The notes: generated from the sequence alone by a model not told the origin. A stretch of 32,000 nucleotides of DNA from an uncultured delta proteobacterium (GCA_963711835.1 CAVQFQ010000023.1:6238-38237), one strand, 5' to 3'. Positions 1 through 13,667 are shown, counted from the first letter of the stretch. Translations and numbers: made by a program.

Positions 1-385
1 CGTCAAACTGCCCCAGTCCCTTTTCCTTGCCGATAAACAGGGTATCCAGGGCCGGTATGACCGGCAGGACCAGCTGACGGGCTACGGTTTGAACTCCGAA
101 GGCACAGGTCATGATCAGCAGGGCGTTGGCCTGGCTGATCTGGGGGCTGAATTCCTTCAGGGCCTCTTCGGTCAGGTTGTCACAGGCCACCGGCAAGATC
201 AGGGTTCCGGTCACCATTTTCCCCTTTTTGGAGAGCTTGTCCTTCATCTCCCTGACCTCGGGTTCTCCCCCGGTTCGGCAGAGGGTCACACAGGTTCCGC
301 AGCCGATGATAAAAATCCTGCCCAGGCCCTCTAAAAGCTGATCAATCTCTGCTTCGGTTTTTTGACGTGTAATAGACCGGATCAT
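1..385 (-). CDS. MetV-like Cys-rich redox protein (methylene-THF reductase C-terminal-domain family), N-terminal part only, runs off the window
   Basis: My own translation of the minus strand, not in the ORF track because it is open at the edge. ATG at 383-385 is preceded by AGGAGAG. It reads MIRSITRQKTEAEIDQLLEGLGRIFIIGCGTCVTLCRTGGEPEVREMKDKLSKKGKMVTG...LIMTCAFGVQTV...PALDTLFIGKE. The IIGCGTC...TGGE..V.EMK block resembles the N-terminal part of MetV proteins as I remember them. It lies 9 nt downstream of the NuoF-GltD stop. Confidence 0.4.
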   Translation of the reverse strand, partial: MIRSITRQKTEAEIDQLLEGLGRIFIIGCGTCVTLCRTGGEPEVREMKDKLSKKGKMVTGTLILPVACDNLTEEALKEFSPQISQANALLIMTCAFGVQTVARQLVLPVIPALDTLFIGKEKGLGQFD

Positions 386-394
386 GGCACTCTC

Positions 395-3300
395 CTATTT
401 TTTTTCCAGGTCACAGCGGAGACATCTGCGGGCCTCCTGATGGGCCTGGGATTCCTCTAAGCCTCGTTCGACTTCCCGAAAATCTTTGATGCGCACCCCG
501 GGGTCCTCCAGGGTGATTTTGATCCTGGGCCTGGCCGGGATGGATTCCTCTTCCAGGGCCAGGAGCGACTCTTCCTTCATCTCGGTTTTTTCATCCGGCA
601 GTTGAACCGGCCCCTGCACGCCCTGAAGGAACTGGTCGATGGAGACGGCGGCCCTGCGTCCCGACCCGATAGCCCGGATGACAAAGGTCGGACCGGTGGT
701 AAAGTCCCCGCCGGCAAAGATGCCCGGGATATTGGTGCTGAGGGTATTGTCATTGATCTCCAGGGTTCCCCAGAGGGCCCTTTCCAGTTGGCTGTCCTCG
801 GAGAGGAAAGAGAGGTCCGGGGCCTGACCGATGGAAATGATGACCGTATCGGCCTCCACGGTCCGGGTGATATCCGGATCGAAGGTCGGTTTGAAACGGC
901 CTTCGGAATCAAAAACCGCCAGGCAGCGCCTGAAGGTGATACCGGTGATCTTTCTTTCCTCCTGAAGGATCTGAACCGGGCCCCAGGAAGGATGAATGAT
1001 GATCCCCTCCTCGATGGCCTCGTGAATTTCTTTTTCCCAGGCCGGCATCTCCTGGCGGGCCTCCAGGCAGTAAAGCAGGACCTCCTCCGCCCCCAAGCGC
1101 AAGGCGGTCCGAGCCACATCGATGGCCACGTTGCCGCCTCCGACGACCACGGCCTTGCCCTTCAGTTCAGGGGCCTGGCCGGTCTTGGCCTGGCTTAAGA
1201 ATTGGAGACCGTAATAAAGCCCTTCCAGGTCTTCTTCTTCTCCAGGTACGCCGATGCGCTTGCTGGACTGGGCCCCGGCGGCAATAAAGATGGCGCTATA
1301 GCCTTCCTTTTTCAGGTCATTAACCGTATGCCGGGCATTGATGGGGGAATTGTAGCGGATTTCCACCCCGCAGCTTTCAATGTAGTCGATTTCCTTCTGG
1401 ATAATCTCCCGGGGAAGGCGGAATTCCGGAACCGTAATCCCTAACATCCCTCCGGCAACCGACTGGGCTTCGAACACCGTTACCGGGTAGCCTGATTTGG
1501 CCAGGAAATAAGCACAGGTCAGGCCGGCCGGCCCGGCGCCCACAATGGCCACCTTTTGCCTTTGGGTTTTGCTAAAGGGTTGCCGGGCCGTCTGGAGATG
1601 GTCAAAATACCAATCGGCCGCAAACCGTTTCAGGGATCGGATAGCCACCGGCTCATCCAATTCCCCCCGGCGGCATTTGAATTCGCAGGGATGGATGCAG
1701 ATACGGCCGCAGACCGCCGGAAACGGGTTCTTTTCCCGGATGATCTCTACCGCCTGTTCATACTTGCCCATGGCGATGGCCGCCACATAGTTGGGCACGT
1801 CGATCCCGGCCGGGCAGGTGTGCTGGCAGGCCGAGATGACCATGGCATCGCAGGTAGCGGCCGGGCAGCGCTTTTCCCGGATATGGGCCTCGTATTCGTC
1901 CCGAAAATACTGGATGGTCGTCAGGACCGGGTTGGCGCAGGATTGGCCCAGTCCGCAGAGGGAGGAGGCCTTGACGGCCTGGCCTACAGTCAGAAGCGTC
2001 TCAATATCCCCTTCCCGTCCTTCACCCCGGGTGATCCGGGTCAGGATCTTGAGCATCTGGGTGGTGCCCAGGCGGCAGGGGCTGCATTTGCCGCAGGATT
2101 CATCCTGGGTAAAGGAGAGAAAATAGCGGGCAATATCCACCATGCAGGTATTTTCATCCATGACGATCATGCCCCCGGAACCCATCATGGAGCCCACGCG
2201 GCGCAGGGAGTCATAATCAATAGGCAGATCCAGGAAGCGGGCCGGGATGCATCCGCCCGAAGGTCCCCCCATCTGAACGGCTTTAAATTTCCGGCCTTTG
2301 GGAACTCCGCCGCCGATATCAAAGATGACCTCCCGCAAGGTCGTCCCCATGGGGACTTCCACCAGACCGGTATTATTGATCCGGCCGGTTACGGAAAAAA
2401 TTTTGGTCCCTTTGCTCTTTTCCGTTCCCAGGCCGGCGTACCATTCCCAGCCCTTTAAAATGATGGTCCGGATATTGGCAAAGGTTTCCACGTTGTTGAT
2501 GGAGGTGGGTTGGCCTCTAAGCCCGGCCTGGGCCGGATAGGGCGGCCGGATTCGAGGCATGCCTCGCCGTCCTTCGACCGAGGCAATCAGGGCGGTTTCC
2601 TCTCCGCAGACAAAGGCCCCGGCCCCTTCCTTGATTTGAATAGCGAAGTCAAAGCCGGATCCAAGAATATTTTTTCCCAGAAGCCCCGCTTCCGTAGCCC
2701 GGCCGATGGCAATCTTGAGGTGCTTGGTGGCAATGGGATATTCGGCCCGGACATAGATAATCCCTTCGGCGGCCCCGATGGCGTACCCGGCAATGGCCAT
2801 CCCCTCGATAACGGAATGGGGATTCCCCTCCAGGACGCTGCGGTCCATAAAGGCCCCCGGATCCCCTTCATCGGCGTTACAGATGATGTATTTGGCCTTC
2901 CCGGGATTTTGACGGGCCGTTCTCCATTTGACCCCGGTGGGAAAGCCGGCTCCCCCCCGGCCCCGGAGGCCTGATTTTTCAACGGTCTCGATCACCTCCT
3001 CCGGGGTCATGAAGGCCAGGACCTTGCTCAGGGCCCCGTAGCCCTGGTAGGTAATGTAATCCTCGAGGGAGGTCGGATCGATCCGGCCGTTCTCCCCGAG
3101 AACCAGACGTTTTTGTTTTTGGTAAAAGGGGACTTCATGGCTGTAAATGTAGGGTTTGCCGCTTACCGGATCCTTGTAAAGCAGGCGCCCGATGATATTC
3201 TTTTTCTCCACCGTTTCGGAAACGATCTCCGGGACATCCTCCGGGGTGATTTGCTGATAAAATATCTCCTGGGGGGCAACGACCAGTAAGGGGGCCCGCT

Positions 3301-3517
3301 CACAGAACCCGTGGCAGCCGGTCTTCTTGATGGCCACCTGCCGGCCGAGTTTCCTGGCTTCGATTTCCCGAAGCAGGGCCTCATAGACTTCCCCGCTGCC
3401 GTAAGCGCTGCACCCGGGACCATCACACAGATAGATGGTGGTCTGCTGAGGATCCTGGAGGTCCAGTAAGGACTGATGCCACTGATGTAACTGTTCAAAA
3501 TTTTTAACGCGCTCCAT
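395..3517 (-). CDS. NuoF-like NADH/FMN subunit with an N-terminal thioredoxin-like [2Fe-2S] domain, fused to a GltD/NfnB-like NAD(P)H:FAD oxidoreductase domain
   Basis: N-terminus has CDGPGCSAYG...CHGFCERAP (2Fe-2S). NuoF motifs are GLRGRGGAGFPTGVKW, ICNADEGDPGAFMDR and ESCGKCSPCRLG. Then come ferredoxin-like Cys clusters (CQHTCPAG, CGRICIHPCEFKC) and a GltD-like Rossmann block KVAIVGAGPAGLTCAYFL...GGMLGITVPEFRLP...VVVGGGNVAIDVAR. The tail ends in ARRCLRCD. I prefer the ATG at 3517 (AGAAAGG 7 nt upstream) over the TTG at 3553 used in the track. Confidence 0.85.
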   Translation of the reverse strand: MERVKNFEQLHQWHQSLLDLQDPQQTTIYLCDGPGCSAYGSGEVYEALLREIEARKLGRQVAIKKTGCHGFCERAPLLVVAPQEIFYQQITPEDVPEIVSETVEKKNIIGRLLYKDPVSGKPYIYSHEVPFYQKQKRLVLGENGRIDPTSLEDYITYQGYGALSKVLAFMTPEEVIETVEKSGLRGRGGAGFPTGVKWRTARQNPGKAKYIICNADEGDPGAFMDRSVLEGNPHSVIEGMAIAGYAIGAAEGIIYVRAEYPIATKHLKIAIGRATEAGLLGKNILGSGFDFAIQIKEGAGAFVCGEETALIASVEGRRGMPRIRPPYPAQAGLRGQPTSINNVETFANIRTIILKGWEWYAGLGTEKSKGTKIFSVTGRINNTGLVEVPMGTTLREVIFDIGGGVPKGRKFKAVQMGGPSGGCIPARFLDLPIDYDSLRRVGSMMGSGGMIVMDENTCMVDIARYFLSFTQDESCGKCSPCRLGTTQMLKILTRITRGEGREGDIETLLTVGQAVKASSLCGLGQSCANPVLTTIQYFRDEYEAHIREKRCPAATCDAMVISACQHTCPAGIDVPNYVAAIAMGKYEQAVEIIREKNPFPAVCGRICIHPCEFKCRRGELDEPVAIRSLKRFAADWYFDHLQTARQPFSKTQRQKVAIVGAGPAGLTCAYFLAKSGYPVTVFEAQSVAGGMLGITVPEFRLPREIIQKEIDYIESCGVEIRYNSPINARHTVNDLKKEGYSAIFIAAGAQSSKRIGVPGEEEDLEGLYYGLQFLSQAKTGQAPELKGKAVVVGGGNVAIDVARTALRLGAEEVLLYCLEARQEMPAWEKEIHEAIEEGIIIHPSWGPVQILQEERKITGITFRRCLAVFDSEGRFKPTFDPDITRTVEADTVIISIGQAPDLSFLSEDSQLERALWGTLEINDNTLSTNIPGIFAGGDFTTGPTFVIRAIGSGRRAAVSIDQFLQGVQGPVQLPDEKTEMKEESLLALEEESIPARPRIKITLEDPGVRIKDFREVERGLEESQAHQEARRCLRCDLEKK

Positions 3518-3561
3518 GCTCAGCCTTTCTGATCCGATAGCTTTTTGTTCCAAGCCATCGA

Positions 3562-4017
3562 CTATGAGCGGTATTTGTTAAGAATCGTTTCAATGCGTTT
3601 CGGGGTCATCTTGCCGAAATAGGTTTGATTTACCACCATAACTGGTGATAAGGCGCAGGCCCCCAGTCAGGCCACCGTTTCCAGGGTGAAAGAGTAATCC
3701 GGCGCGGTTTCTCCCTCTTCCAAGTCCAGATCTTTTTGCACCACCCGCAAAACGCCTCGGCCGCCCCGGACGTGGCAGGCTGTTCCACGACAGACCTTGA
3801 CCACGGTTTTTCCCCTGGGATGGGTGTAAAACTGGGAATAAAAGGTGACCACCCCCTGGACTTGACTGGGAGTCACCCCCAAGGCTTCGGCGATTTGAGG
3901 CACCACCTCTTCAGGGAGATAACCAAGGCGCTCCTGAACCTGCTGCAGGAGAGGGATTAAGGCCTCTTTGTTTCTGCCAAAGGTCTGCAAGATGTCCTGG
4001 ATATCTGGGCTGGTCAT
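3562..4017 (-). CDS. NuoE/HoxE-type thioredoxin-like [2Fe-2S] subunit with an in-frame TGA (3667-3669), candidate selenoprotein
   Basis: The track ORF 3667-4017 ends ...CRGTACHVRGG...FTLETVA-TGA. The same frame continues for 34 codons (LGACALSPVMVVNQTYFGKMTPKRIETILNKYRS) to TAG at 3562-3564. The joined protein has the spacing C-x4-C-x35-[TGA]-x3-C, which equals the NuoE cluster-ligand spacing. The start overlaps the upstream gene stop (ATGA at 4014-4017). Confidence 0.7.
3630..3651 (-). promoter_or_regulatory. SECIS-like stem-loop downstream of the in-frame UGA
   Basis: The mRNA reads UGA-CUGGGGGCCUGCGCC-UUAUCACCA-GUUA-UGGUGGUAA. This gives a 9-bp stem (one G-U pair) and a 4-nt loop beginning with GU. 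The loop starts 24 nt after the UGA, inside the roughly 16-37 nt range I recall being used for bacterial SECIS searches. Confidence 0.5.
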
Positions 4018-6665
4018 TCGAACGCTCCTATTTTATGGATTTTCACCGGACAGATCTTATGAAGAGACCCTTTGCTGCTGGGATCCCAAAAGGCCTCCAA
4101 CAGGCCGGGAATCTTTAACTCGGGATAAGGCAGGGGAAGAAAAACAACCCCGGGCAACACCTGGTCTTCAATAAGGGCCGATACCTGCAGGCTGCCCCGC
4201 CGGGAACAAATTTCGACCGGATCCCCGGACCGTATCTCCAACCGTTGGGCATCGTCCAGAGAGAGGGTTAGTTTAGGCGGGGGGGTTACGGACTTCAAAC
4301 GCCGGTCTTTCCAGGTGCGGGTACCGGCCCCCAAATGCAGAACCAGGCTGCCCCAGATAAGCAGGAAAGGATAATCCGGATCCTGGGCCAATCTTTCTAA
4401 TTGTATCTTGGGAATGAGAAAAGGAAACGGTTTGCCTGTCGGCTGGAAGGGCGGGAGGAAAACAGGTCCCTTGGATAACCGGTCTGGATTGATCTGATTA
4501 TAACTCGGGACCAGCCCCTGGATTTCCCTGAAGAGTTCAGCCGGGGCATAGGCAGCCTGAGGGACCCCGAAGGCCTGGAAAAGGGAATGAAAGATTTCCC
4601 CATCGGCTTTGGCTTCTCCCGGGGGAGGAATCGCCTGTTGCAAGGCCTGGACCCGTCGTTCCAGGCTGGTAAAGGTCCCCTCTTTTTCTGCGAAAGCGGC
4701 TGTTGGAAGGACCACCTGGGCCTTTTGGGCCGTTTCGGATAAAAAAAGATCCTGAACGACTAAAAAGTCCAGACGGTCCAAGGCCCCTTCAACCCAATTT
4801 CGATCCGGGTAGGTCCCCAGAGGGTCTTCGCCGGCCAGGTATAATCCCTTCAATTCCCCCTGTTGGGCCGAGGCCATCATTTCCAGGGCCGACAAACCCG
4901 GCCCTGGAGGGACTGGGACACCCCAGGTTTCCTCAAATTTTTTAACGGCCTGAAAGTCGGTCAGGTTATGATAGCCCGGGAGATAATCCGGCAAGACCCC
5001 CATATCCCAGGCCCCCTGGGCATTGCTTTCCTTCAAAATAGGATAAAGGCCGCTCCCGGGTTTTCCCCATTGCCCGGTGAGGAGCATTAAATTCATTAGG
5101 CCCATCACCAGGGCCGTGGCCTGCAATTGCTGGTTCACCCCGGAGCCCAGGACCAGGGCCACCCCCCTGGCTGAAGCAAACCCTTCAGCAGCCCTACGGA
5201 CTTCCTGGGAAGACAAACCGATAGTCTTCCTTAAGGATTTCAGGTCCTGTTTTAGGAAGGACTCCTTCCATTCCAGGAATCCTTCCGTTTGGGAATAAAC
5301 AAACCCCTGGTTCCAGAGGTTCTCACTAAGCAGATGGGCGATCAGGAGTTGGATCAGGGCCAGATCCGAACCCGGCTGAATTTGGAGCCAGAGGTCGGCC
5401 CGGGTGGCCAGCTTGGTCTTCCTGGGATCCACAACCGTCAGCTTAGCCCCTTTCTGGGCTACCGCCCTTTTGACCATATAGCCTAAGACCGGGCTGCTTT
5501 CCGTGGGATTGCCCCCCATGACCCAGATCAAATCGGCCTCCAAAAGCCGGTGGAGCGGGGCCATGGCCCCGGCCTGCCCCCAGACCTTGGCCATCACAGT
5601 CATGATCGGGGCCATTGATAACCGGGATCCGTTGTCCACATGAGGGGTCTTTAGTCCAGCCCGAGCCAGCTTTTGGAAAAGGTAAAGCTCCTCATTAGTT
5701 AAATGAGGACTGGCCAGACAACCGATCCGATCCGATCCCCATTCCTTCTGTATTCGACTGAACCCCTCCTTTACCGTGCTTAGGGCCTCTTCCCAGGAGG
5801 CCTTCTCCAGGGTTCCGTTCCTCCGAATCAGGGGATAGAGCAGGCGATCCGGACTATGGACATAATTAAATCCGAAATGTCCTTTGACACAGAGAACCGG
5901 GCCCTTCTCGCCGTCGTTGGCCGGCGTGACTCGTATAATCCGATCGGAGTGGGTTTCCAGGACCAGGGAACAGCCGCAGCCGCAGTGCGAACAGACCGTT
6001 ACCGTCCGGGTTGGGATGGCCCCCTGGTGAAACAACTGGGTTTCGGTCAGGGCCCCGGTGGGACAGAGGGAGAGGCAGGTCCCGCAAAAAGTACAGGCCG
6101 ACTGCTCCAAGGGGACGTTTTGAAAGGTGGCCGGACGGGCCTTAAAGCCCCGGTTAATATAGTCCAAAACCCCTTCCACCACCAGCTCCTGGTCGCCCCG
6201 GATGCATTTCCCGCAGAGGATGCACTTGCTCATATCCCGCTTAAAGAAAGGATTACTATCATAGGTCGGGAAGTACTGGGGCATGGGATCCAGAAGAATC
6301 GCCCCCAATCCCAGTTCAGCGGCCACGCTTCTGAGCTGGCAGCGGTTCCCCTTGTCGCAAACAATGCAGGATTCAGGATGACTGGCCAACATGAGCCCAA
6401 TGACGGCCCGGCGGCTCTCCAGGACCCGAGGGGAATGGGTCTTAAGTATCATCCCGGGAGCAATGGTCGTTACGCAGGAGGGCAACAGGACACCCCGGCT
6501 CTCTTCTTCCACCAGACAGATCCGGCAGGCCCCGGCCGCCGGAAGATGCGGGTCATGGCAAAGGGTTGGGATAGGGATTCCCAGATCCTGGGCCAACTCC
6601 AGGATAGTCATTCCGGCCTTACCACTTACAGTCTGCTCGTTGATCTGTACGGTTACGCTACTCAC
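4014..6665 (-). CDS. NuoG / formate-dehydrogenase-alpha-like molybdopterin-fold Fe-S subunit lacking the catalytic Sec/Cys
   Basis: N-terminal 2Fe-2S (CHDPHL..GACRICLV..C), a His-ligated cluster (HPESCIVCDKGNRC), two ferredoxin motifs (CILCGKCIRG, CTFCGTCLSLCP), the MopB 4Fe-4S (CSHCGCGCS...LCVKG) and a C-terminal MGD-binding beta-barrel (DDAQRLEIRSGDPVEI). GTG start at 6665 has AAAGGGGAA upstream. The active-site stretch reads VDNGSRLSMAP where FdhH has VD..ARV-U-HGP. Confidence 0.8.
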   Translation of the reverse strand: MSSVTVQINEQTVSGKAGMTILELAQDLGIPIPTLCHDPHLPAAGACRICLVEEESRGVLLPSCVTTIAPGMILKTHSPRVLESRRAVIGLMLASHPESCIVCDKGNRCQLRSVAAELGLGAILLDPMPQYFPTYDSNPFFKRDMSKCILCGKCIRGDQELVVEGVLDYINRGFKARPATFQNVPLEQSACTFCGTCLSLCPTGALTETQLFHQGAIPTRTVTVCSHCGCGCSLVLETHSDRIIRVTPANDGEKGPVLCVKGHFGFNYVHSPDRLLYPLIRRNGTLEKASWEEALSTVKEGFSRIQKEWGSDRIGCLASPHLTNEELYLFQKLARAGLKTPHVDNGSRLSMAPIMTVMAKVWGQAGAMAPLHRLLEADLIWVMGGNPTESSPVLGYMVKRAVAQKGAKLTVVDPRKTKLATRADLWLQIQPGSDLALIQLLIAHLLSENLWNQGFVYSQTEGFLEWKESFLKQDLKSLRKTIGLSSQEVRRAAEGFASARGVALVLGSGVNQQLQATALVMGLMNLMLLTGQWGKPGSGLYPILKESNAQGAWDMGVLPDYLPGYHNLTDFQAVKKFEETWGVPVPPGPGLSALEMMASAQQGELKGLYLAGEDPLGTYPDRNWVEGALDRLDFLVVQDLFLSETAQKAQVVLPTAAFAEKEGTFTSLERRVQALQQAIPPPGEAKADGEIFHSLFQAFGVPQAAYAPAELFREIQGLVPSYNQINPDRLSKGPVFLPPFQPTGKPFPFLIPKIQLERLAQDPDYPFLLIWGSLVLHLGAGTRTWKDRRLKSVTPPPKLTLSLDDAQRLEIRSGDPVEICSRRGSLQVSALIEDQVLPGVVFLPLPYPELKIPGLLEAFWDPSSKGSLHKICPVKIHKIGAFE

Positions 6666-6679
6666 GGCATTCCCCTTTG

Positions 6680-7078
6680 TTAATCGAGTTTGCGATTCCC
6701 GCCGGCCGCCAGCCTTTCCCAGGCGTTTCGGACAGCCAACAGTAATTCTTCGGGACCGAAGGTCTTAACATGGTAGTAATAAATCGGATTTTGACGGATT
6801 CGGGCTTCCAGCTCCGGTGTATTTTCTCTGGCCGTGACAATAATCAGCAAAGAAGGATCCACCCCTTTTAGGATGGATATGGCTTCATAGGCCTTCATTT
6901 CCGGCATCTCCGCCGCCATGATCAAGATTTCGACTTTTTCCTGTTGGACGATCTGGATAGCCTGGATGCTTCTGGCGGCGGTAAAAATCTGGAATCCTTC
7001 TTCTCCCAGGGTCCTTGACCAATGGGAAAGGAATTGGGCATCCGGATCAGCGATCAAAATTGTCCCTGGTTTTTCCAT
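6680..7078 (-). CDS. Single-domain receiver-like protein lacking the phospho-acceptor Asp (pseudo-receiver)
   Basis: MEKPGTILIADPDAQF...VEILIMAAEMPEMKAY...LIIVTARE...YYHVKTF shows the receiver fold pattern with the Thr and Lys positions kept. The usual LLD-I-x-MP acceptor reads IMA-A-E-MP (Ala55, codon 6914-6916). The ATG at 7078 is preferred because the longer track ORF (start 7123) would run through the promoter motif. Confidence 0.65.
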   Translation of the reverse strand: MEKPGTILIADPDAQFLSHWSRTLGEEGFQIFTAARSIQAIQIVQQEKVEILIMAAEMPEMKAYEAISILKGVDPSLLIIVTARENTPELEARIRQNPIYYYHVKTFGPEELLLAVRNAWERLAAGGNRKLD

Positions 7079-7094
7079 GGCAGCCTTCAATAAG

Positions 7095-7110
7095 AGCAAA
7101 GGGCATACCA
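7095..7110 (-). promoter_or_regulatory. sigma54 (-24/-12) type promoter for the redox operon
   Basis: The minus strand reads C-TGGTATG-CCCT-TTGCT. GG and GC have the canonical spacing of the TGGCACG-N4-TTGCW consensus. It sits about 17 nt upstream of the receiver ATG and directly downstream of an NtrC-type activator gene. Confidence 0.5.
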
Positions 7111-7224
7111 GGAGGCGCCTCATCCTTAATGGGTTAATTTTACTGTTGATCAGGTAAATGGAGGGAAAGGCTGGGAGGATACGGCTGTTACAAAATGCCT
7201 CAGGTGTGTAGTTTCACCTCACCT

Positions 7225-8595
7225 TTACAAGCGGTATTTTTTGATCTTTTCCAGGAGGGTCTTGCGATTGATGCCCAGCAGTTCAGCGGCCTGGGAACGA
7301 TTGCCCTGGGTCTTTTTTAAAACCTGTCCGATGTACTCTTTTTCCAACTCCTGCAGGGTGGCCACCTTTTCCTCGGATAGGGGAAGGTCTTGATGCTTCC
7401 GTTGGATAAACCAGGGGATGTCCTCCGGCCTGAGGATCGGCCCATCCTCCAATATGACGATGCGCTCGATTAAATGCTTCAGCTCCCGGACGTTGCCCGG
7501 CCAGTCATATTCCATCAGCAGTTCCAGGGCCTCCGGGGAAATCCCCTGGATCGTTTTTTTATTTTTTTTGCTGAATTGGCGGAGAAAATAATCGACCAGC
7601 AGGGGGATGTCTTCCCTTCTTTCCTTAAGGGACGGCAAGTGGATGGGAACCACGCTCAGGCGGTAGAAGAGATCCTCACGGAAGAGTCCCTGCCGGATGG
7701 CCTGGCGAAGATCCTGGTTGGTGGAGGCGATGATGCGGATATCGACCTTGATTTTCTTCTCACTGCCGACCTTGATGAATTCCCTCTCCTGGATAACCCG
7801 CAATAATTTGGCCTGGATGTTCAAGCTGAGGTTGGAGATTTCGTCAAAGAAAAAGGTCCCTCCGTTGGCCAGTTCCAAAAAGCCGTGTTTGGTCTGAATG
7901 GCCCCGGTGAAGGAACCCTTGACATGGCCGAAGAGCTCGCTCTCCATCAAGGTCTCCACCAGAGCCGAGCAGTCTACAGCCACGAACTCTTTGTCCCCCC
8001 GGAGGCTGTGTTGCTGGATGGCCCGGGCCACCAGTTCCTTGCCGGTGCCGCTGAAACCATAAATCAGGACCGTGCTGTCGGTGGGGGCCACTTTCTCAAT
8101 GGTCTGAAAGATCTTTTGCATGGCCCGGCTCTTGCCGATCAGCGGGTCGAGACCGCCTTTCAGTTCCATCTGCTTTCTCAAGAGATGGTTCTCCCAGAGG
8201 AGCTGCCTGTGTTCCAGGGCTTTGCGGATGGCCAGCTTCAACTGGTCCGGGCTGAACGGCTTGGTCAGGTAATCAAAGGCCCCCTGCTTAATGGATTGAA
8301 CGGCTGTTCCAATTTCAGGGTAGCCGGTAATCATGATGATTTCAAGCGCACCGCGGACTTCCGATTCGGTAATAGTTCTCAAAACCTCCAGGCCGTCCAT
8401 ATCCGGCATCTTGATATCCAGAAGCACCAGGCTGTAGGCGTTCTGGGCTACTTCTTCCAGGGCCTCCCGGCCGGTGGCCACGGCCTTGACCAGAAAGCCT
8501 TCTTTGATCAAGACCCGACTGATGCCTTCCCGGATGACCGCCTCATCATCCACCACCAGGATTCGGATATCGGGACTCTTCCTAAGCTCCTGCAT
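7225..8595 (-). CDS. sigma54-dependent response regulator (NtrC/Fis family: receiver + AAA+ + HTH)
   Basis: ILVVDDE...LLDIKMPDMDG (receiver), GFSGTGKELVARAI (Walker A), ESELFGHVKGSFTGA (GAFTGA-type loop), and a C-terminal Fis-type HTH NRSQAAELLGINRKTL. Confidence 0.9.
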   Translation of the reverse strand: MQELRKSPDIRILVVDDEAVIREGISRVLIKEGFLVKAVATGREALEEVAQNAYSLVLLDIKMPDMDGLEVLRTITESEVRGALEIIMITGYPEIGTAVQSIKQGAFDYLTKPFSPDQLKLAIRKALEHRQLLWENHLLRKQMELKGGLDPLIGKSRAMQKIFQTIEKVAPTDSTVLIYGFSGTGKELVARAIQQHSLRGDKEFVAVDCSALVETLMESELFGHVKGSFTGAIQTKHGFLELANGGTFFFDEISNLSLNIQAKLLRVIQEREFIKVGSEKKIKVDIRIIASTNQDLRQAIRQGLFREDLFYRLSVVPIHLPSLKERREDIPLLVDYFLRQFSKKNKKTIQGISPEALELLMEYDWPGNVRELKHLIERIVILEDGPILRPEDIPWFIQRKHQDLPLSEEKVATLQELEKEYIGQVLKKTQGNRSQAAELLGINRKTLLEKIKKYRL

Positions 8596-8601
8596 GCGGA
8601 C

Positions 8602-9084
8602 TTATTCCATTCCCGGCACTTCGAAAGCCTGCTCAATGGCCTTAACCGCTGTGGATAAATCGGAGGCCCTGATGACGCAGGAACAAGTGGAGATTGAGGT
8701 ACTGATGGCCATGATATTGATGTTGCGCAAATTCAGGGCCGCGAAAAAAGAGCCGGCAATCCCGGGACGCTCCCGGAAATGGGGGCCGAAGATCGAAACC
8801 ACCGCAATATCCGGATTGGATGTGAGATTTAAAAATTGGATTTGGGGTTTCAGTTCATTTAAAACCGCCAGGGCCTCATCGGCGGCCGAACGGGAGATAC
8901 AGAGGATGACCTGGCTTTCTCCGCGCTGGCTCAAGCAGTGCATGATGAACTCCACGTTGAGGCCCCGACGACCCAGGGATTGAAAAATCAAACCGGCGAC
9001 ACCCGGCCGGTCGGGGATGTTTTCAATACTGACCAGGCTTAAATCGGTGTGCTCGATGATTCCACCCAGTTTGATCTTTTTCAT
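8602..9084 (-). CDS. Tandem ACT-domain protein (aspartate-kinase regulatory-domain-like)
   Basis: 160 aa with two repeats of the ACT-type pattern (IPDRPGVAGLIFQSLGRRGLNVEFI; FRERPGIAGSFFAALNLRNINIMAI). No catalytic domain is present. Confidence 0.6.
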   Translation of the reverse strand: MKKIKLGGIIEHTDLSLVSIENIPDRPGVAGLIFQSLGRRGLNVEFIMHCLSQRGESQVILCISRSAADEALAVLNELKPQIQFLNLTSNPDIAVVSIFGPHFRERPGIAGSFFAALNLRNINIMAISTSISTCSCVIRASDLSTAVKAIEQAFEVPGME

Positions 9085-9309
9085 TTTTTTCCTTTTGGCG
9101 CTTGTTCCAGCCGCTATCCGCTACCAGCTCAACACTCTGAACTCTTAATATCGTTCAAAGGTTTTGGCACTGGTGTAGCATGGCCTGACTTGGGGACCGG
9201 GATCAGGCTGCCGGCGTTTTGGCGGACAATCCTTCAAATCGAGACCCCCGGTCCCTTTCCATCGGGTATCAGAAACATAATACCACAACCTTTGGACGAT
9301 ACCGAACTC

Positions 9310-9756
9310 TTAGATTTGCCCCATCAGGAGCCGGCGGGTGCGCTGCAGGCGTTTGGCAATGATGATGCACAAATTCCGCATCACTTTAAAGCCCAGCGCC
9401 GGATGTTGCGTTAGGACTTGGTTGAACGCTTTTCGCTCGAACGATAAGACCCGGGTTTTTTCCAGGCAGATGGCCGTGGCGCTAAGCTGATACGGTTCAA
9501 CCAGGGCTGACCAGCCGAAGGGGCTGCCTTTTTTTTTAATTATTTCAAAGGTGACCTCCAGACCTTCGGACAGGGCTGTTTTCACGGCCACTACCCCTCG
9601 ATCCAGCAGATAGACCCTTTCGCCCAGGGTATCCTGATAAAAGATGATCGACCCGGTAGGAAAGGTTTCGGCCTCGGCCAGTGGAGTTAAGAGTTCCAGA
9701 TCGTGGGAGGATATCTTGTTAAACAATTCACTCTGTTTGACTGGGCTAAGAACCAT
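9310..9756 (-). CDS. Cyclic-nucleotide-binding domain protein (no DNA-binding domain)
   Basis: 148 aa with a Crp/cNMP beta-roll pattern (FYQDTLGERVYLLDRGVVAV...GSPFGWSAL...ATAICLEKTRVLSFERKAF). The start overlaps the upstream kinase stop by 11 nt. Confidence 0.7.
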   Translation of the reverse strand: MVLSPVKQSELFNKISSHDLELLTPLAEAETFPTGSIIFYQDTLGERVYLLDRGVVAVKTALSEGLEVTFEIIKKKGSPFGWSALVEPYQLSATAICLEKTRVLSFERKAFNQVLTQHPALGFKVMRNLCIIIAKRLQRTRRLLMGQI

Positions 9757-11248
9757 GGCTATCCCTTTCTGTTGGAATGGATGGAATCAGGACCTTAAAG
9801 CAGGTGCCCCGGTCCGGATGACTTTCCACCTGAATGTACCCCAAATGGGCCTCGACCAGACGCTTGACAATAGGCAATCCCAAACCGGTTCCGATGATCT
9901 GCCGGGTTTTCTCATTTTTTACCCGGAAAAAGCGATCAAAGATCCTCGGAAGATCCTGGGGGGATATGCCTATGCCGGTGTCTGAAACCTGGATGAGGAG
10001 GTATTCCGCTTCAGGGCTTAGGGAAACCTGAATAGACCCTCCTTCCGGCGTATATTTGACGGCGTTATGAACCAGGTTGGTCAAAATTTCCTCCATGGCC
10101 TGGGGATCGGCATGGACCAAGGGTAGGGGCGAACCGGCTTTTAGGGACAGCTTCTGATTTCTGGCCTCTGCCTGCGGTTTGAACAGGTCAAGGGTCCTTT
10201 CAACCAGGGGCAGAAGCTGGAGCGGCTCTTTTTGTTGAAACTGAATCCCGGCCTCGATCTGGGAAATATCCAAAAGATTGCGGATGAGTTCCAGGAGACC
10301 GGACACCCTCTCCTTGGATCGACCCAGGAGTTCTTTCTGCTTGGGGCTGACTTCCCCGGCCAGTCCCTCCAGGATAACCGAGATCTGCTGCGAAATAGCG
10401 GACAAAGGGGCCCTGAGCTCATGGGAAACCATGGCCACAAACTCGCTTTTCATCTGATCCAGGGCCTTCAGGTAGCTGATATCCTGGAGCACGGTCACCG
10501 ACCCCAGCATCTCTTCGGAATCTCCCCGGACCGCGGCGGTATGGGCCCGCAAATAAACCGGATCGTTTTGTCCTAAAGAAAATTCCTGGGAAATCACCGA
10601 AGGGCTTTCTCCCTGAGTTAAGACCTGGCCGATGGCCTCGGAAAGGAGTTTTAATTCAGAAGAGTCGGGCAAGGGCTTACCCAGGAGATCCAGGGGCGGC
10701 AACCTGAGTAAATGGATCGAAGCCGGATTATGGAGGACGATGTTTTGGTCCCGGTCGGTTACCAGCACCCCGCTGGCCATGCAGTGAATGATGGTCTGAA
10801 TCCGTCCTTTCTCCGTGGCGATGTCTTTAAGGCTTTTTGCCTGTTCTTGGCGCAACCGCTCGGCTTCGATCTGGAGGGCCCTTTTCTCTAAGGCTCGACG
10901 GACAACCAAACGGAGCTGATCCGGTGTGAAGGGCTTGGTAATAATGTCATAGGCCCCGCGCTTCATGGCCTCCACAGCCAGTTCCACGGTGGCATGTCCG
11001 GTGATGATGAGTACGATTTGATCGGGGGAAAGAGCCTGAACCTTTTCCAGAACATCCATGCCGTTCATGACGGGCATCATGATGTCCAGCAGGACCAGAT
11101 CAAACGGTTTTTTCTGTAAGAGTTCCCAGGCCTGGGCCCCATTTTCTACCAAGGTGATTTGATATTTTTCCCTGGAAAGGATGCGCTGGATCCCGTCTCG
11201 AATTACTTTTTCGTCATCAGCCAAAAGTAAGGAATAGTCTGAACCCAT
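9746..11248 (-). CDS. Hybrid receiver-PAS-histidine kinase
   Basis: N-terminal receiver (LLADDE...LLDIMMPVMNGMD...KPF), a coiled linker, a PAS-like segment, HisKA (FVAMVSHELRAPL) and HATPase_c (NLVHNAVKYTPEGG...DTGIGI...GTGLGLPIVK). Confidence 0.9.
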   Translation of the reverse strand: MGSDYSLLLADDEKVIRDGIQRILSREKYQITLVENGAQAWELLQKKPFDLVLLDIMMPVMNGMDVLEKVQALSPDQIVLIITGHATVELAVEAMKRGAYDIITKPFTPDQLRLVVRRALEKRALQIEAERLRQEQAKSLKDIATEKGRIQTIIHCMASGVLVTDRDQNIVLHNPASIHLLRLPPLDLLGKPLPDSSELKLLSEAIGQVLTQGESPSVISQEFSLGQNDPVYLRAHTAAVRGDSEEMLGSVTVLQDISYLKALDQMKSEFVAMVSHELRAPLSAISQQISVILEGLAGEVSPKQKELLGRSKERVSGLLELIRNLLDISQIEAGIQFQQKEPLQLLPLVERTLDLFKPQAEARNQKLSLKAGSPLPLVHADPQAMEEILTNLVHNAVKYTPEGGSIQVSLSPEAEYLLIQVSDTGIGISPQDLPRIFDRFFRVKNEKTRQIIGTGLGLPIVKRLVEAHLGYIQVESHPDRGTCFKVLIPSIPTERDSHGS

Positions 11249-11322
11249 TTATGAAAAAACCTCTTTTTATTCCATTGATCTCATTTTTTTAGGACCAGCG
11301 GTTATGGGCTTTGGCGGATAAA

Positions 11323-13284
11323 CTAACTGATCCCCAGCAGGGCTGACTCCTTGGCCTCTTTCTGGGAGGAAGGACCTTCCAGCGGCAGGTGGATGAGGAA
11401 GGTAGTTCCTTGACCTACCTGGCTTTGGACTTCAATGGTTCCCCCGTGTTCTTGGATGATCCCGTAGACCGTACTCAACCCCAACCCGGTTCCTTTCCCG
11501 ACCTCTTTGGTGGTAAAGAAGGGGTCGAAGATCCGGGAAAGGATTTCAGGAGGGATTCCAGCCCCGGTATCGCTGAGTTCCAAGGCGATTTTATCGTCGC
11601 CGGGAAGAGTGTAGGTGCGCAAGGTCAAGGTTCCGTTACCGCCCATGGCATCAGCGGCGTTGGTCATTAAATTGATAATGACCTGATTCAACTGCCCGGG
11701 ATCGGTGATGATTTCAGGCAGCCCGGGATCCAGCTCCTCCACCACGTGGATATTATGGAACAGGGCTTGTTTTCCCAAGAGGCTGACGGTCTGCTTTACC
11801 GATTGATTGGGGTTCCAGGGAACCCAGCGATGCTGGGTCTGGCGGCTGAATTCGAGCAGCTCCTTGACGATCTCCTTGCAGCGCATGGTTTGTTCAACAA
11901 TCTGAGCCAGGTCGTCCCACCGGGAATCTTCCCGGCCTGTTTCTTCCAATAGCATATTGGCGTAGATGAGGATTCCACCCAGGGGGTTATTGATTTCATG
12001 GGCCACTCCGGCCGCCAATTTACCCAGCGAGGCCATCTTCTCCGAATGCAGCAGCTTGAGATGGGTTTCTTCCAGCTCCTTTTGCAAACGGATTCGTTCT
12101 CGAAGATCCGTAAAAATCCCCACACTGGCAATTTCCTGCCCGTTTTCATCATAGATTAAGGCTGCGGAAAGATTGGCGGGAAAGGATTCCCCCAGCTTGG
12201 TAACCAGGGTGACCTGGGTGCCGCCCAATTTTCCCGGGGGGCCATAATCACTGCTGCGAAGCCGGCGCATGATATCTTTGGCCAGGCCCTCCGGGTAAAT
12301 CTGGGTGATATGGAATTGTTCCAAAGCCACTTCGGCAGTGTAACCCAGCAAGCGTTCCGCCCCCTGATTAAAGACGATTATTTTCCCTTTCATATCAGCG
12401 GCGATAATGCCGTCCACGGAACTGATAATGATGTTTTTCAGAAAATTATTGGTTTTTCGGAGTTCGTTTTCAAAACGGATCCGTTCAGAAAGATCCCGCA
12501 GGTAAGCATAGGTCTTGAGTTGCCCTTCAATCGCGGCCAGGGCCAGACAAATCTCCACTTCCCGGGGGATACGGGAGGCACTGATAATTTTAAACTGGGT
12601 GCAGACTTTACGGTTTTCATTGGATTTCAGGCGCATCTGGGTCGGCAGAGCCAAAAGAAATTCCCGATCTTCTTCGGAGAGTAAGGACCGGAAATCCAAG
12701 CCGATCAGTTGGTCCTTGGAGAAACCGGTAATATCGGAAGCCAGGGAATTGGCGAATTCGATCCGGTAATTCTGGTCAAAAACCAGGATGCCGTCGTTGC
12801 CCATTTCAATTATTTTCTGAAGGGCCTGGTGAACGTCCAGCAACCGCCTTTCCATGGACTTATAGGCCGAGATATCCCGGAGCAGGGCATAAATCTGATT
12901 TCGTTCAAAAAGGCTGGGGCTGGAAAACAGGGTCAGTTCCGCATCCTTGATTTCCTGCTGGGGAGTCAGCAGTTTAACCTCGGAAGAGACCTTGAGTTTC
13001 GATTTCAGAATCGGGGGCTGGAGCATGTCCCGGAGGATAGGCTGGTCCTGAGGAGTGAAAAGAGAAAAAATATCCTGGTGAATCAAGTTGGGCAGGGAGG
13101 TGCCGGTAATGAGGGCCGCCTGTTCATTGGCCCAATTGATTTTCATGTCGGAGCCTAAAATCACCAGCCCCTCTCCGCCGATCTGGCCCATGGTCTGGAG
13201 GGTTTCCTCTAGATAGACCAGGCGCTGCTCAGGGGACAGCGAGGGCTGGTTCACCAGATGAGAGGGACTGCCAGCTTCGTTCAT
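11323..13284 (-). CDS. Multi-PAS sensor histidine kinase
   Basis: Several PAS-like repeats, an H-box ([12 protein letters not shown]) and HATPase_c ([10 protein letters not shown]...DTGAGIPPE...[13 protein letters not shown]). The ATG at 13284 is preferred (GGGAG 8 nt upstream). The track starts 3 nt earlier at TTG. Confidence 0.9.
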
Positions 13285-13667
13285 CAATAGAACTCCCTAC
13301 CACACCGAGAAGGTCTAAGAAGAGTTGCCAGATAAACCGGAAGACAAAAAGAGAGCCTATCTTATCAGAAAAATAGCCCCAGTCAATTCAATACCGGAAG
13401 GTGACCGCCTTTTTAACGGGAGGATCATAAACCCGGGGCTCCTATTTTTTACCAGCCGACCTGGTCTTTTTTCGACATGGCCGCCGCCAATCGGTCCTGG
13501 ATATCAATGATCGTTAAAGATGGAAACCCGTTGTCCCGGCCTGATAAGCCCAATGGCTTCCCTGGCCTTGGATCGCTTCCCCATGTAATTATCGGCTGAA
13601 CCCCTGACGCCCATGGAATTCTCTTGAGGAAGCGGTCCGGCGCTTCGGAAAAGGATCGGCTTTGGGA

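Follow-up and report, generated by a model that had tools for sequence, protein, structure and literature searches.

A metVF-linked NuoEFG-like module with a NuoF::GltD fusion and a selenocysteine-type nuoE gene in an uncultured delta proteobacterium: a candidate X-type methylene-tetrahydrofolate reductase

The locus described here raises the question of whether a NuoEFG-like flavin and iron-sulfur (Fe-S) module and the adjacent metV and metF genes encode a single enzyme. The locus lies at the left end of a 32,000-nucleotide stretch of DNA (the window; contig C23:6238-38237) from the metagenome-assembled genome (MAG) of an uncultured delta proteobacterium, GCA_963711835.1. Every gene of the module is carried on the minus strand: those for a formate dehydrogenase (FDH)-like subunit, a NuoE-like subunit, a NuoF::GltD fusion, MetV and MetF. 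Yi et al. (2021, Microbiol Spectr, PMC8515935) noted metFV beside NuoEFG homologues in Dethiosulfatarculus sandiegensis and defined a hypothetical “X type” (group III) of methylene-tetrahydrofolate (methylene-THF) reductase. They described the layout as widespread in Desulfobacterales and Chloroflexi, speculated about bifurcation, and stated that “it has not been studied” (PMC8515935). Our literature search found no paper describing or testing the X-type complex, and X-type reductase is still unpurified. The energetic coupling of methylene-THF reduction is an open point of the Wood–Ljungdahl pathway, with MetVF-only enzymes being ferredoxin-linked only in vitro, and with its five soluble proteins the X-type cassette makes a compact candidate, one whose carriers include Dehalococcoidia, which are abundant in sediments. 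From the sequence comparisons presented below, we infer that the five genes encode one soluble X-type methylene-THF reductase complex, with a probability of about 0.6.

Gene order and conservation of the cassette

The original prediction, made from the window alone, described three coupled minus-strand genes, for an FDH/NuoG-like subunit, a NuoE-like subunit and a 1040-residue NuoF::GltD fusion, and the genes, strand, sizes and domains were found as described (Table 1). The GTG start of the FDH-like gene is preceded by a AAAGGGGA Shine–Dalgarno sequence, and its stop codon overlaps the start of nuoE in an ATGA at 4014-4017. Nine nucleotides past the fusion gene begins an open reading frame (ORF) that was thought to encode MetV. 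The partial ORF at 2-385 had no Pfam matches when searched alone and was recognizable as MetV only in its complete form, after extension to the left of the window. The metF gene that had been predicted further to the left is indeed present, 4 nucleotides past metV. Contigs from RNA libraries span the NuoE region and the fusion/metV junction (contigs only, from which strand, ends and levels are not readable).

A one-genome-per-species scan detected a NuoF::GltD fusion in at least 581 stretches, and the best 80 loci were compared with the six protein parts of the window. Thirteen of these 80 have the order FDH-like, NuoE, fusion, MetV, MetF; they come from Thermodesulfobacteriota (among them Desulfomonile, Syntrophaceae and Desulfarculales MAGs) and from Dehalococcoidia MAGs. 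At locus L055, the first three genes occur in the same order, followed by the end of the contig. Two loci from Planctomycetota MAGs (L060 and L063) have the permuted order metV-metF-nuoE-fusion-FDH-like. The MetF proteins of these two loci are merely 38–39% identical to that of the window, and it looks as if MetVF became linked to this module independently in them.

We also surveyed 301 genomes sampled evenly from the phylum of the window, Thermodesulfobacteriota. Fusions with a GltD part at least 53% identical to that of the window were assigned to class A, and X-type MetV orthologues were defined by at least 53% identity, with paralogues clearly apart at ≤51%. A class-A fusion was present in 37 of the 301 genomes, or about one in eight of the sampled species, representing at least 12 families. 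It directly adjoins an X-type MetV in 35 of the 35 genomes that have both on one contig; the remaining two are located at contig ends. The linkage to metV proposed for the window is thus kept across the phylum, as well as in Chloroflexota MAGs and, permuted, in Planctomycetota. The identity of the GltD part is 52–79% within class A compared to 38–44% for the free form. Across loci, the X-type orthologues are 52–83% identical for MetV, 70–88% for MetF and 31–61% for the FDH-like subunit. Compared with its two paralogues in the host genome, the X-type MetF shows 41% identity, a pattern that fits a separate clade such as the group III of Yi et al.

An alternative explanation is that the trimer of FDH-like subunit, NuoE and fusion is a free Nfn/Stn-like, Bfu-derived oxidoreductase or transhydrogenase, merely co-transcribed with a stand-alone MetVF, and that it supplies or recycles reduced carriers for MetVF or for the Wood–Ljungdahl pathway without forming a physical complex. 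The domain inventory of the trimer equals that of NfnABC/Stn, and about 8 of the best 80 loci (L044, L059, L061, L065-L067, L069 and L111), all from other phyla, encode the trimer with a full-length FDH-like subunit and without metVF. Most of the best 80 loci contain NuoE, the fusion and a short HydA-N-terminal-like Fe-S protein, and this far commoner form also occurs without metVF in many phyla. MetVF dimers, for their part, are active alone in acetogens (PMC8515935, PMC8760232). Against a free enzyme stand the invariable adjacency of class-A fusions and X-type MetV, the recurrence of the association in permuted form in another phylum, and the separate identity class formed by the class-A GltD parts. 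The domain analysis below bears further on this alternative.

Table 1. Positions of the module genes, their parts and neighboring features. Positions are those of the window unless a contig (C23) is given.
Feature	Position	Strand	Remarks
FDH/NuoG-like Fe-S subunit (BfuA-like)	4014-6665	(-)	883 residues; GTG start
NuoE/HydC/NfnC-like subunit (BfuC-like)	3565-4017	(-)	151 residues with read-through; stop TAG 3562-3564
SECIS-like hairpin UUAUCACCA-GUUA-UGGUGGUAA	3630-3651	(-)	from folding; apical loop begins 24 nucleotides after UGA
NuoF::GltD fusion	398-3517	(-)	1040 residues; ATG 3517, stop 395-397
NuoF/HydB-like part of fusion	1832-3517	(-)	residues 1-~562
GltD/NfnL-like part of fusion	398-1831	(-)	residues ~563-1040
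metV, 5' part	1-385	(-)	ATG at 385; runs off the window
metV, whole gene	C23:5963-6622	(-)	220 residues; PF12225, E = 2.9e-34
metF	C23:5071-5955, outside the window	(-)	294 residues from ATG; PF02219, E = 1.2e-40
Receiver-domain-only response regulator	6680-7123	(-)	PF00072; 14 nucleotides upstream of the FDH-like gene
Sigma-54-like GG-N10-GC site	7095-7110	(-)	downstream of the NtrC-type activator gene
NtrC-type sigma-54 activator	7225-8595	(-)	upstream regulatory array (6680-13287)
Double ACT protein	8602-9084	(-)	upstream regulatory array (6680-13287)
Hybrid receiver-PAS histidine kinase	9746-11248	(-)	upstream regulatory array (6680-13287)
PAS histidine kinase	11323-13287	(-)	upstream regulatory array (6680-13287)

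Redox sites of the fusion and the large subunit

The Pfam domains of the fusion are, in order, a thioredoxin-like [2Fe-2S] domain (PF01257-like, residues 20-101), Complex1_51K, SLBB, NADH_4Fe-4S, Fer4_20 and Pyr_redox_2. The first of these bears out the extra N-terminal [2Fe-2S] domain that had been proposed for the fusion; it provides the B5 N-terminal site of Bfu enzymes, which holds [2Fe-2S] or Zn, and the alignment with HydB begins at residue 8. Matches to PF01512 (1.5e-48) and PF10589 (8.9e-33) correspond to the flavin mononucleotide (FMN)/NAD(H) site and the B1 [4Fe-4S] cluster of BfuB, so that the NuoF part contains the motifs for B5, the FMN/NADH site and B1, together with the B2 Cys motif. 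Its closest PDB matches are HydB of NiFe-HydABCSL (7t2r_B, 757 bits) and FeFe HydB (707 bits), followed by NfnB (9bov_B and 9n5u_B) and StnB (8oh5_B) at ≈670 bits. The GltD part includes a Fer4_20 domain with two [4Fe-4S] clusters, flavin adenine dinucleotide (FAD) and a second dinucleotide site. It is matched best by residues 104-567 of NfnA (9bov_A, 346 bits), then by 9n5u_A, StnC (8oh5_C) and NfnL (4ylf_B, 286 bits).

In Bfu enzymes, B1-FMN-C1 is the minimal bifurcation site, and the low-potential electron passes from C1 to B3/B4 in the C-terminal domain of BfuB and then to ferredoxin (PMC11829005). When the junction of the fusion was used as a query, the alignments with StnB and NfnB stopped at residue 529/584, just past the B2 Cys motif, and beyond the junction the chain resumes directly as NfnA residue 103/104, in Fer4_20. 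The ferredoxin-reducing C-terminal domain with the B3/B4 [4Fe-4S] clusters is absent from the fusion, with no Fer4 dicluster matches in either Pfam or the junction alignment. By its predicted domains, the fusion is a BfuB without B3/B4, joined to a GltD-like module. Since the canonical B3/B4 domain is missing, the usual ferredoxin-linked reaction of Bfu enzymes is unexpected; its loss also counts against a free Nfn-like enzyme, as the Nfn-Bfu enzymes use this domain. The short-subunit three-gene form mentioned above (L044-L112), a domain-permuted relative of NfnABC/Stn found in Aminicenantes, Ignavibacteria, KSB1, Zixibacteria, Bacteroidota, Planctomycetota and others, likewise has no B3/B4, and our literature search found no paper on it.

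The C-terminus of the fusion (...ARRCLRCDLEKK) ends in RCLRCDLEKK. The RCLRCD motif within it had been called an orphan, a description that we abandon: R-C-L-R-C-D/E is almost invariant in 80 fusion homologues, and in alignments it falls opposite ‘RCLECG’ in NfnA of C. saccharolyticus (9bov_A residues 562-567) and ‘RCMSCG’ in 9n5u_A.

In GltD/NfnL-type proteins, a Y-R-R sequence following the second GxGxxA binds the 2'-phosphate of NADPH, and an acidic residue in its place is the usual sign of a preference for NADH. The fusion in the window has Y-C-L-E-A-R at this position. Every free (class B) fusion has YRR(S/T), as do many X-type orthologues, while C-L-E is common to the window, G011-G013, G272, G249, G054, G056 and L034. 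This distribution divides the X-type cassette into two conserved sub-variants. The FAD-side site in the lineage of the window looks NADH-type rather than NADPH-type, and this variant may use NADH at both nucleotide sites. Without the Arg pair, the lineage would have no NADP site for a transhydrogenase, which is a further point against a free Nfn-like enzyme. Taken together, we regard a free trimer that is merely co-transcribed with metVF as unlikely, if still a credible rival to a single X-type complex. The original prediction had read the locus as a possible NAD(P)H-linked, perhaps electron-bifurcating, methylene-THF reductase, or else as an Nfn-like transhydrogenase. The linkage to MetV and metF speaks for the first reading, whose support is partial in view of the earlier printed account of the layout and of the absence of both B3/B4 and the Arg-Arg pair for NADPH.

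The FDH-like subunit comprises the Pfam domains Fer2_4, NADH-G_4Fe-4S_3, 2x[4Fe-4S] (Fer4_Nqo3), Molybdop_Fe4S4, Molybdopterin and Molydop_binding, with an N-terminus of the NuoG/HydA type. The predicted clusters are A1 [2Fe-2S], a His-ligated [4Fe-4S], two further [4Fe-4S] and an FDH-type [4Fe-4S], a complement consistent with BfuA, for which A1 [2Fe-2S] plus three or more [4Fe-4S] clusters are characteristic. A working FDH might be expected from the two molybdopterin domains and from the best PDB matches, which belong to alpha subunits of genuine FDHs: R. capsulatus FdsA (6tg9_A, 480 bits), then 9wxb_B (FdsA) and M. extorquens FDH1 (7e5z_A) at ≈480 bits. In the alignment, however, Cys386, His387 and Arg587 of FdsA are replaced by Ser, Met and Lys, so that both the Sec/Cys-His dyad and the Arg of metal-dependent FDHs are lost. 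The same positions are unconserved in 10 X-type orthologues (Y, R, S, L, G, E and others), in which the CxxCxxxC...C motif of the FDH-type cluster is kept. With its catalytic residues lost or variable, its cluster motif kept and its identity much lower than that of MetF in the same loci, the subunit is best read as a catalytically dead FDH that serves as an iron-sulfur wire. A functional FDH is very improbable.

The in-frame TGA codon of nuoE

The nuoE frame contains an in-frame TGA at 3667-3669 on the minus strand, and plain ORF calling produced a 116-residue stump. The NuoE-like gene of the original prediction is therefore present with one amendment, in that its frame is open only when this TGA is read through. 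Read in this way, the protein matches PF01257 over its full length (1-145/145, 175.9 bits), with HydC (7t2r_C, 157.6 bits) and NfnC (9n5u_C) as the top PDB matches. Its [2Fe-2S] motif is C76-x4-C81-x35-U117-x3-C121. The TGA thus falls on the third ligand of the [2Fe-2S] cluster C1, which marks BfuC and is part of the B1-FMN-C1 flavobicluster, with a predicted selenocysteine (Sec) in place of the third Cys.

A search for nuoE orthologues was carried out in 61 related genomes with stop codons read through. The same codon is TGA in the host genome (G000) and in the four nearest orthologues, those of G011, G012, G013 and G019, with 71–73% amino acid identity, and is a TGT or TGC Cys codon in all of the more distant ones. 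The 34 codons past the TGA are conserved. Downstream of the TGA, the RNA is predicted to form a hairpin resembling a Sec insertion sequence (SECIS; Table 1), whose core, UCACCA-GUUA-UGGUGA, does not vary among the five TGA forms and is not found in five Cys forms. In the extension of the stem, differences between the species preserve pairing (U.G to U-A, A-U to G.U). The host genome encodes tRNA-Sec, selA, selB and selD. The selD gene (G000:C6:87193-88110, L145; 388.7 bits to TIGR00476) itself contains one in-frame TGA, which is to be expected of a Sec-containing selenophosphate synthetase and indicates that this genome makes use of Sec decoding. An Rfam scan of 3450-3800 with E up to 10 returned no SECIS or other relevant family, a result that is uninformative given the poor coverage of SECIS elements from bacteria. 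Other sediment samples retain the TGA: two metatranscriptome libraries and two DNA runs yielded ≈98% identical contigs in which the codon does not differ.

The gene thus combines the features of bacterial selenoprotein genes, with UGA opposite Cys in its homologues, a conserved downstream frame, a stem-loop and the Sec machinery. It bears the signature of Sec decoding, by which the third C1 ligand of NuoE is predicted to be encoded as Sec.

If the TGA were instead a nonsense mutation or an assembly error, the module would be broken and the operon decaying. Such damage would explain why standard ORF calling halts at this codon and why no Rfam SECIS model matches. The MAG (3.9 Mb, 89% complete) is also 6.4% contaminated, and a 95–99% identical duplicate of the metF-metV end is present on contig C21. 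But the TGA is shared by five species-level genomes whose next relatives have Cys, and the codons beyond it remain conserved; a hairpin confined to the TGA forms follows at the spacing of a bacterial SECIS; tRNA-Sec, selA, selB and a Sec-containing selD are all encoded; and the codon recurs in independent DNA and RNA-library contigs of other samples. We consider a broken gene highly improbable. The duplication, in which C21:1-8714 corresponds to the left end of C23 (C23:1-7966, containing the 3' part of the fusion gene, metV, metF and the region beyond) at 93–98.5% identity, probably reflects a mixture of strains in the MAG. Additional copies of a DUF4143/AAA_14 ATPase gene (C23:1002-2348), with 97% identity, occur elsewhere on C21.

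Other interrupted frames were encountered. In G019 (C31:153500-153913, L017), the frame of the Sec-type nuoE diverges close to the 3' terminus and continues for 1219 codons into the fusion gene, owing to a frameshift or to a genuine triple fusion of NuoE, NuoF and GltD. A second NuoE match with a TGA, in G044, was rejected as the TGA is a true stop codon. Rejected, too, was Sec in the gene for formyltetrahydrofolate synthetase (FTHFS) of the host (C21:69810-71405; L122, 12808-14571), where the upstream frame holds five TGAs. The first ≈80 profile positions are absent in frame from this gene, and its interruption is a frameshift, an assembly error or a truncated start.

A 2026 review of the prokaryotic selenoproteome has no entry for NuoE or NADH dehydrogenase (PMC13188914), and in our literature search, papers that deal with selenocysteine and NuoE describe no NuoE selenoprotein. 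A Sec ligand at C1 would add an Fe-S ligand case to the selenoproteome, and the natural pair of Sec and Cys forms offers a probe of how the cluster potential controls bifurcation.

Electron path, genomic setting and related enzymes

In the proposed X-type complex, MetF, with its flavin and folate site, and the Fe-S protein MetV would be wired through the Fe-S chain of the dead FDH-like subunit to the BfuB/BfuC core, with FMN and its NAD(H) site, B1 [4Fe-4S] and C1 [2Fe-2S]. From C1, electrons would pass to the GltD/NfnL-type module, which has two [4Fe-4S] clusters, FAD and the second pyridine-nucleotide site, and which takes the place of B3/B4. Three two-electron couples would thereby be linked: methylene-/methyl-THF, NAD(H) at the FMN and NAD(P)(H) at the FAD. 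The likely mechanism would be flavin-based bifurcation or confurcation at B1-FMN-C1, with no canonical ferredoxin exit, and the coupling would either exploit the exergonic reduction of methylene-THF or drive the unfavorable oxidation of methyl-THF in a sulfate reducer with acetyl-CoA synthase. The folate couple has an E0' of about -200 mV and the nucleotides of about -320 mV, and a bifurcating or confurcating scheme would be thermodynamically sensible in either direction. The host genome encodes DsrA/B, acetyl-CoA synthase and FTHFS, and is thus that of a sulfate or sulfite reducer with a Wood–Ljungdahl pathway.

More specifically, the enzyme might be a ferredoxin-independent bifurcating or confurcating enzyme with a new type of reaction, in which the electrons of NADH at B1-FMN-C1 are split between methylene-THF, reached through the FDH-like wire and MetVF, and a second pyridine nucleotide at the fused FAD, and in which C1, as the low-potential gate, is Sec-ligated. 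This narrower proposal is speculative, and we hold it to be doubtful. If it were true, the reverse reaction would make methyl-THF oxidation feasible for acetate-oxidizing sulfate reducers, and a natural Se-ligated cluster would exist within a bifurcation site, in a selenoprotein family that the 2026 catalogue does not list (PMC13188914). The wiring, with two nucleotide sites and no ferredoxin domain, in any case points to a concrete, testable reaction.

Several points weigh against a single five-subunit complex. Our literature search found no biochemistry or structure of such a complex, and the one account of the X type only speculates (PMC8515935). The occurrence of the trimer without metVF in other phyla shows that it can work alone, and conversely MetVF alone is active, in a reduced-ferredoxin-dependent manner, in Clostridium ljungdahlii (PMC8515935, PMC8760232). 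Since the solved NfnABC/Stn structures have their GltD module in subunit A, they offer no template for the electron path. A single transcript is not proven by the RNA-library contigs. Finally, the X-type set need not carry the main flux, since the genome contains two more MetVF sets.

The three MetVF sets of the host have different partners. One of the other two (C10:196946-202997, L123) has the order CCG(HdrB/C-like)-HdrA-Fer4-MvhD-MetV-MetF, as in the Moorella type, while the second (C21:62964-69617, L122) consists of FTHFS, a 1475-residue HdrA/GltD/Fer4 giant protein, MetV and MetF. A different arrangement was observed in G044 (C21:38000-52000, L144), where a 1397-residue giant flavoprotein, MetV, MetF, a 256-residue ORF, a NuoE-like protein and a 622-residue HydB-like protein are encoded on one strand; this genome carries the X-type cassette as well, on its contig C6.

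Upstream of the module lies an array of regulatory genes on the same strand (Table 1). The operon may begin with the receiver-only gene closest to the module, for which the ATG at 7076 is the probable true start. Another receiver-domain gene is located downstream of metF (C23:4637-5023). The sigma-54-like site is a mere hint, as matches to TGGCAC-N5-TTGCW with up to two mismatches occur in the window at chance level (12 found, 11.4 expected).

The composition of the module is distinct from the Moorella-type MetFV-HdrABC-MvhD (‘6S’) and the Acetobacterium-type MetFV-RnfC2 (‘3S’) enzymes, as originally proposed. These likewise combine a MetVF core with an NADH-binding flavin and Fe-S module, but their input modules are unrelated to that of the window. 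Bifurcation, with a second acceptor still to be identified, is a long-standing suspicion for the Moorella enzyme (PMC8515935). In marine Chloroflexi, solely the Hdr type was described by Sewell et al. (2017, PMC5736913).

Among enzymes that share parts of the module, HydABC and NiFe-HydABCSL (7t2r, 7q4v, 8a6t) are closest in sequence to the NuoF part and NuoE, and the N-terminal [2Fe-2S] domain of subunit B is shared. The module in the window differs in having neither a hydrogenase subunit nor B3/B4, and its A subunit is FDH-like instead of HydA. The FAD domain and two N-terminal [4Fe-4S] clusters of NfnSL/GltD (4ylf_B, 5jca_L, 2vdc_G) match the GltD part, but the classical proteins end ≈65 residues sooner, without the RCLRCD tail, and keep the YRR that is CLE in the window.

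The same domain set as in the window is found in NfnABC/Stn (9bov from C. saccharolyticus, 9n5u from an archaeon and 8oh5 from S. ovata; PMC11829005, PMC12018979), namely a NuoE-like C1 subunit, a NuoF-like protein with FMN, B1, B2 and B5, a GltD/NfnL-like FAD module and a non-catalytic FDH-like domain. The arrangement is different, however. Subunit A of NfnABC/Stn carries the GltD module as an insert (≈104-567) and subunit B keeps B3/B4, whereas in the window the module is located at the end of B, where it replaces B3/B4, the A-like subunit has no GltD insert, and the MetVF genes are attached. This replacement and the attached MetVF genes suggest that the substrates are not simply NADPH, NAD and ferredoxin.

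The X type of Yi et al. has the same layout as the locus described here, with metV-metF directly adjacent to NuoE/F/G homologues on the same strand, and it occurs in matching taxa. That account includes no domain analysis or biochemistry and mentions neither the NuoF::GltD fusion, the dead FDH, the missing B3/B4, the Sec of NuoE nor the change from YRR to CLE. The X-type layout is thus already in print, and what is added here is a predicted Sec-bearing, CLE-type variant and a clearer wiring diagram of the putative complex.

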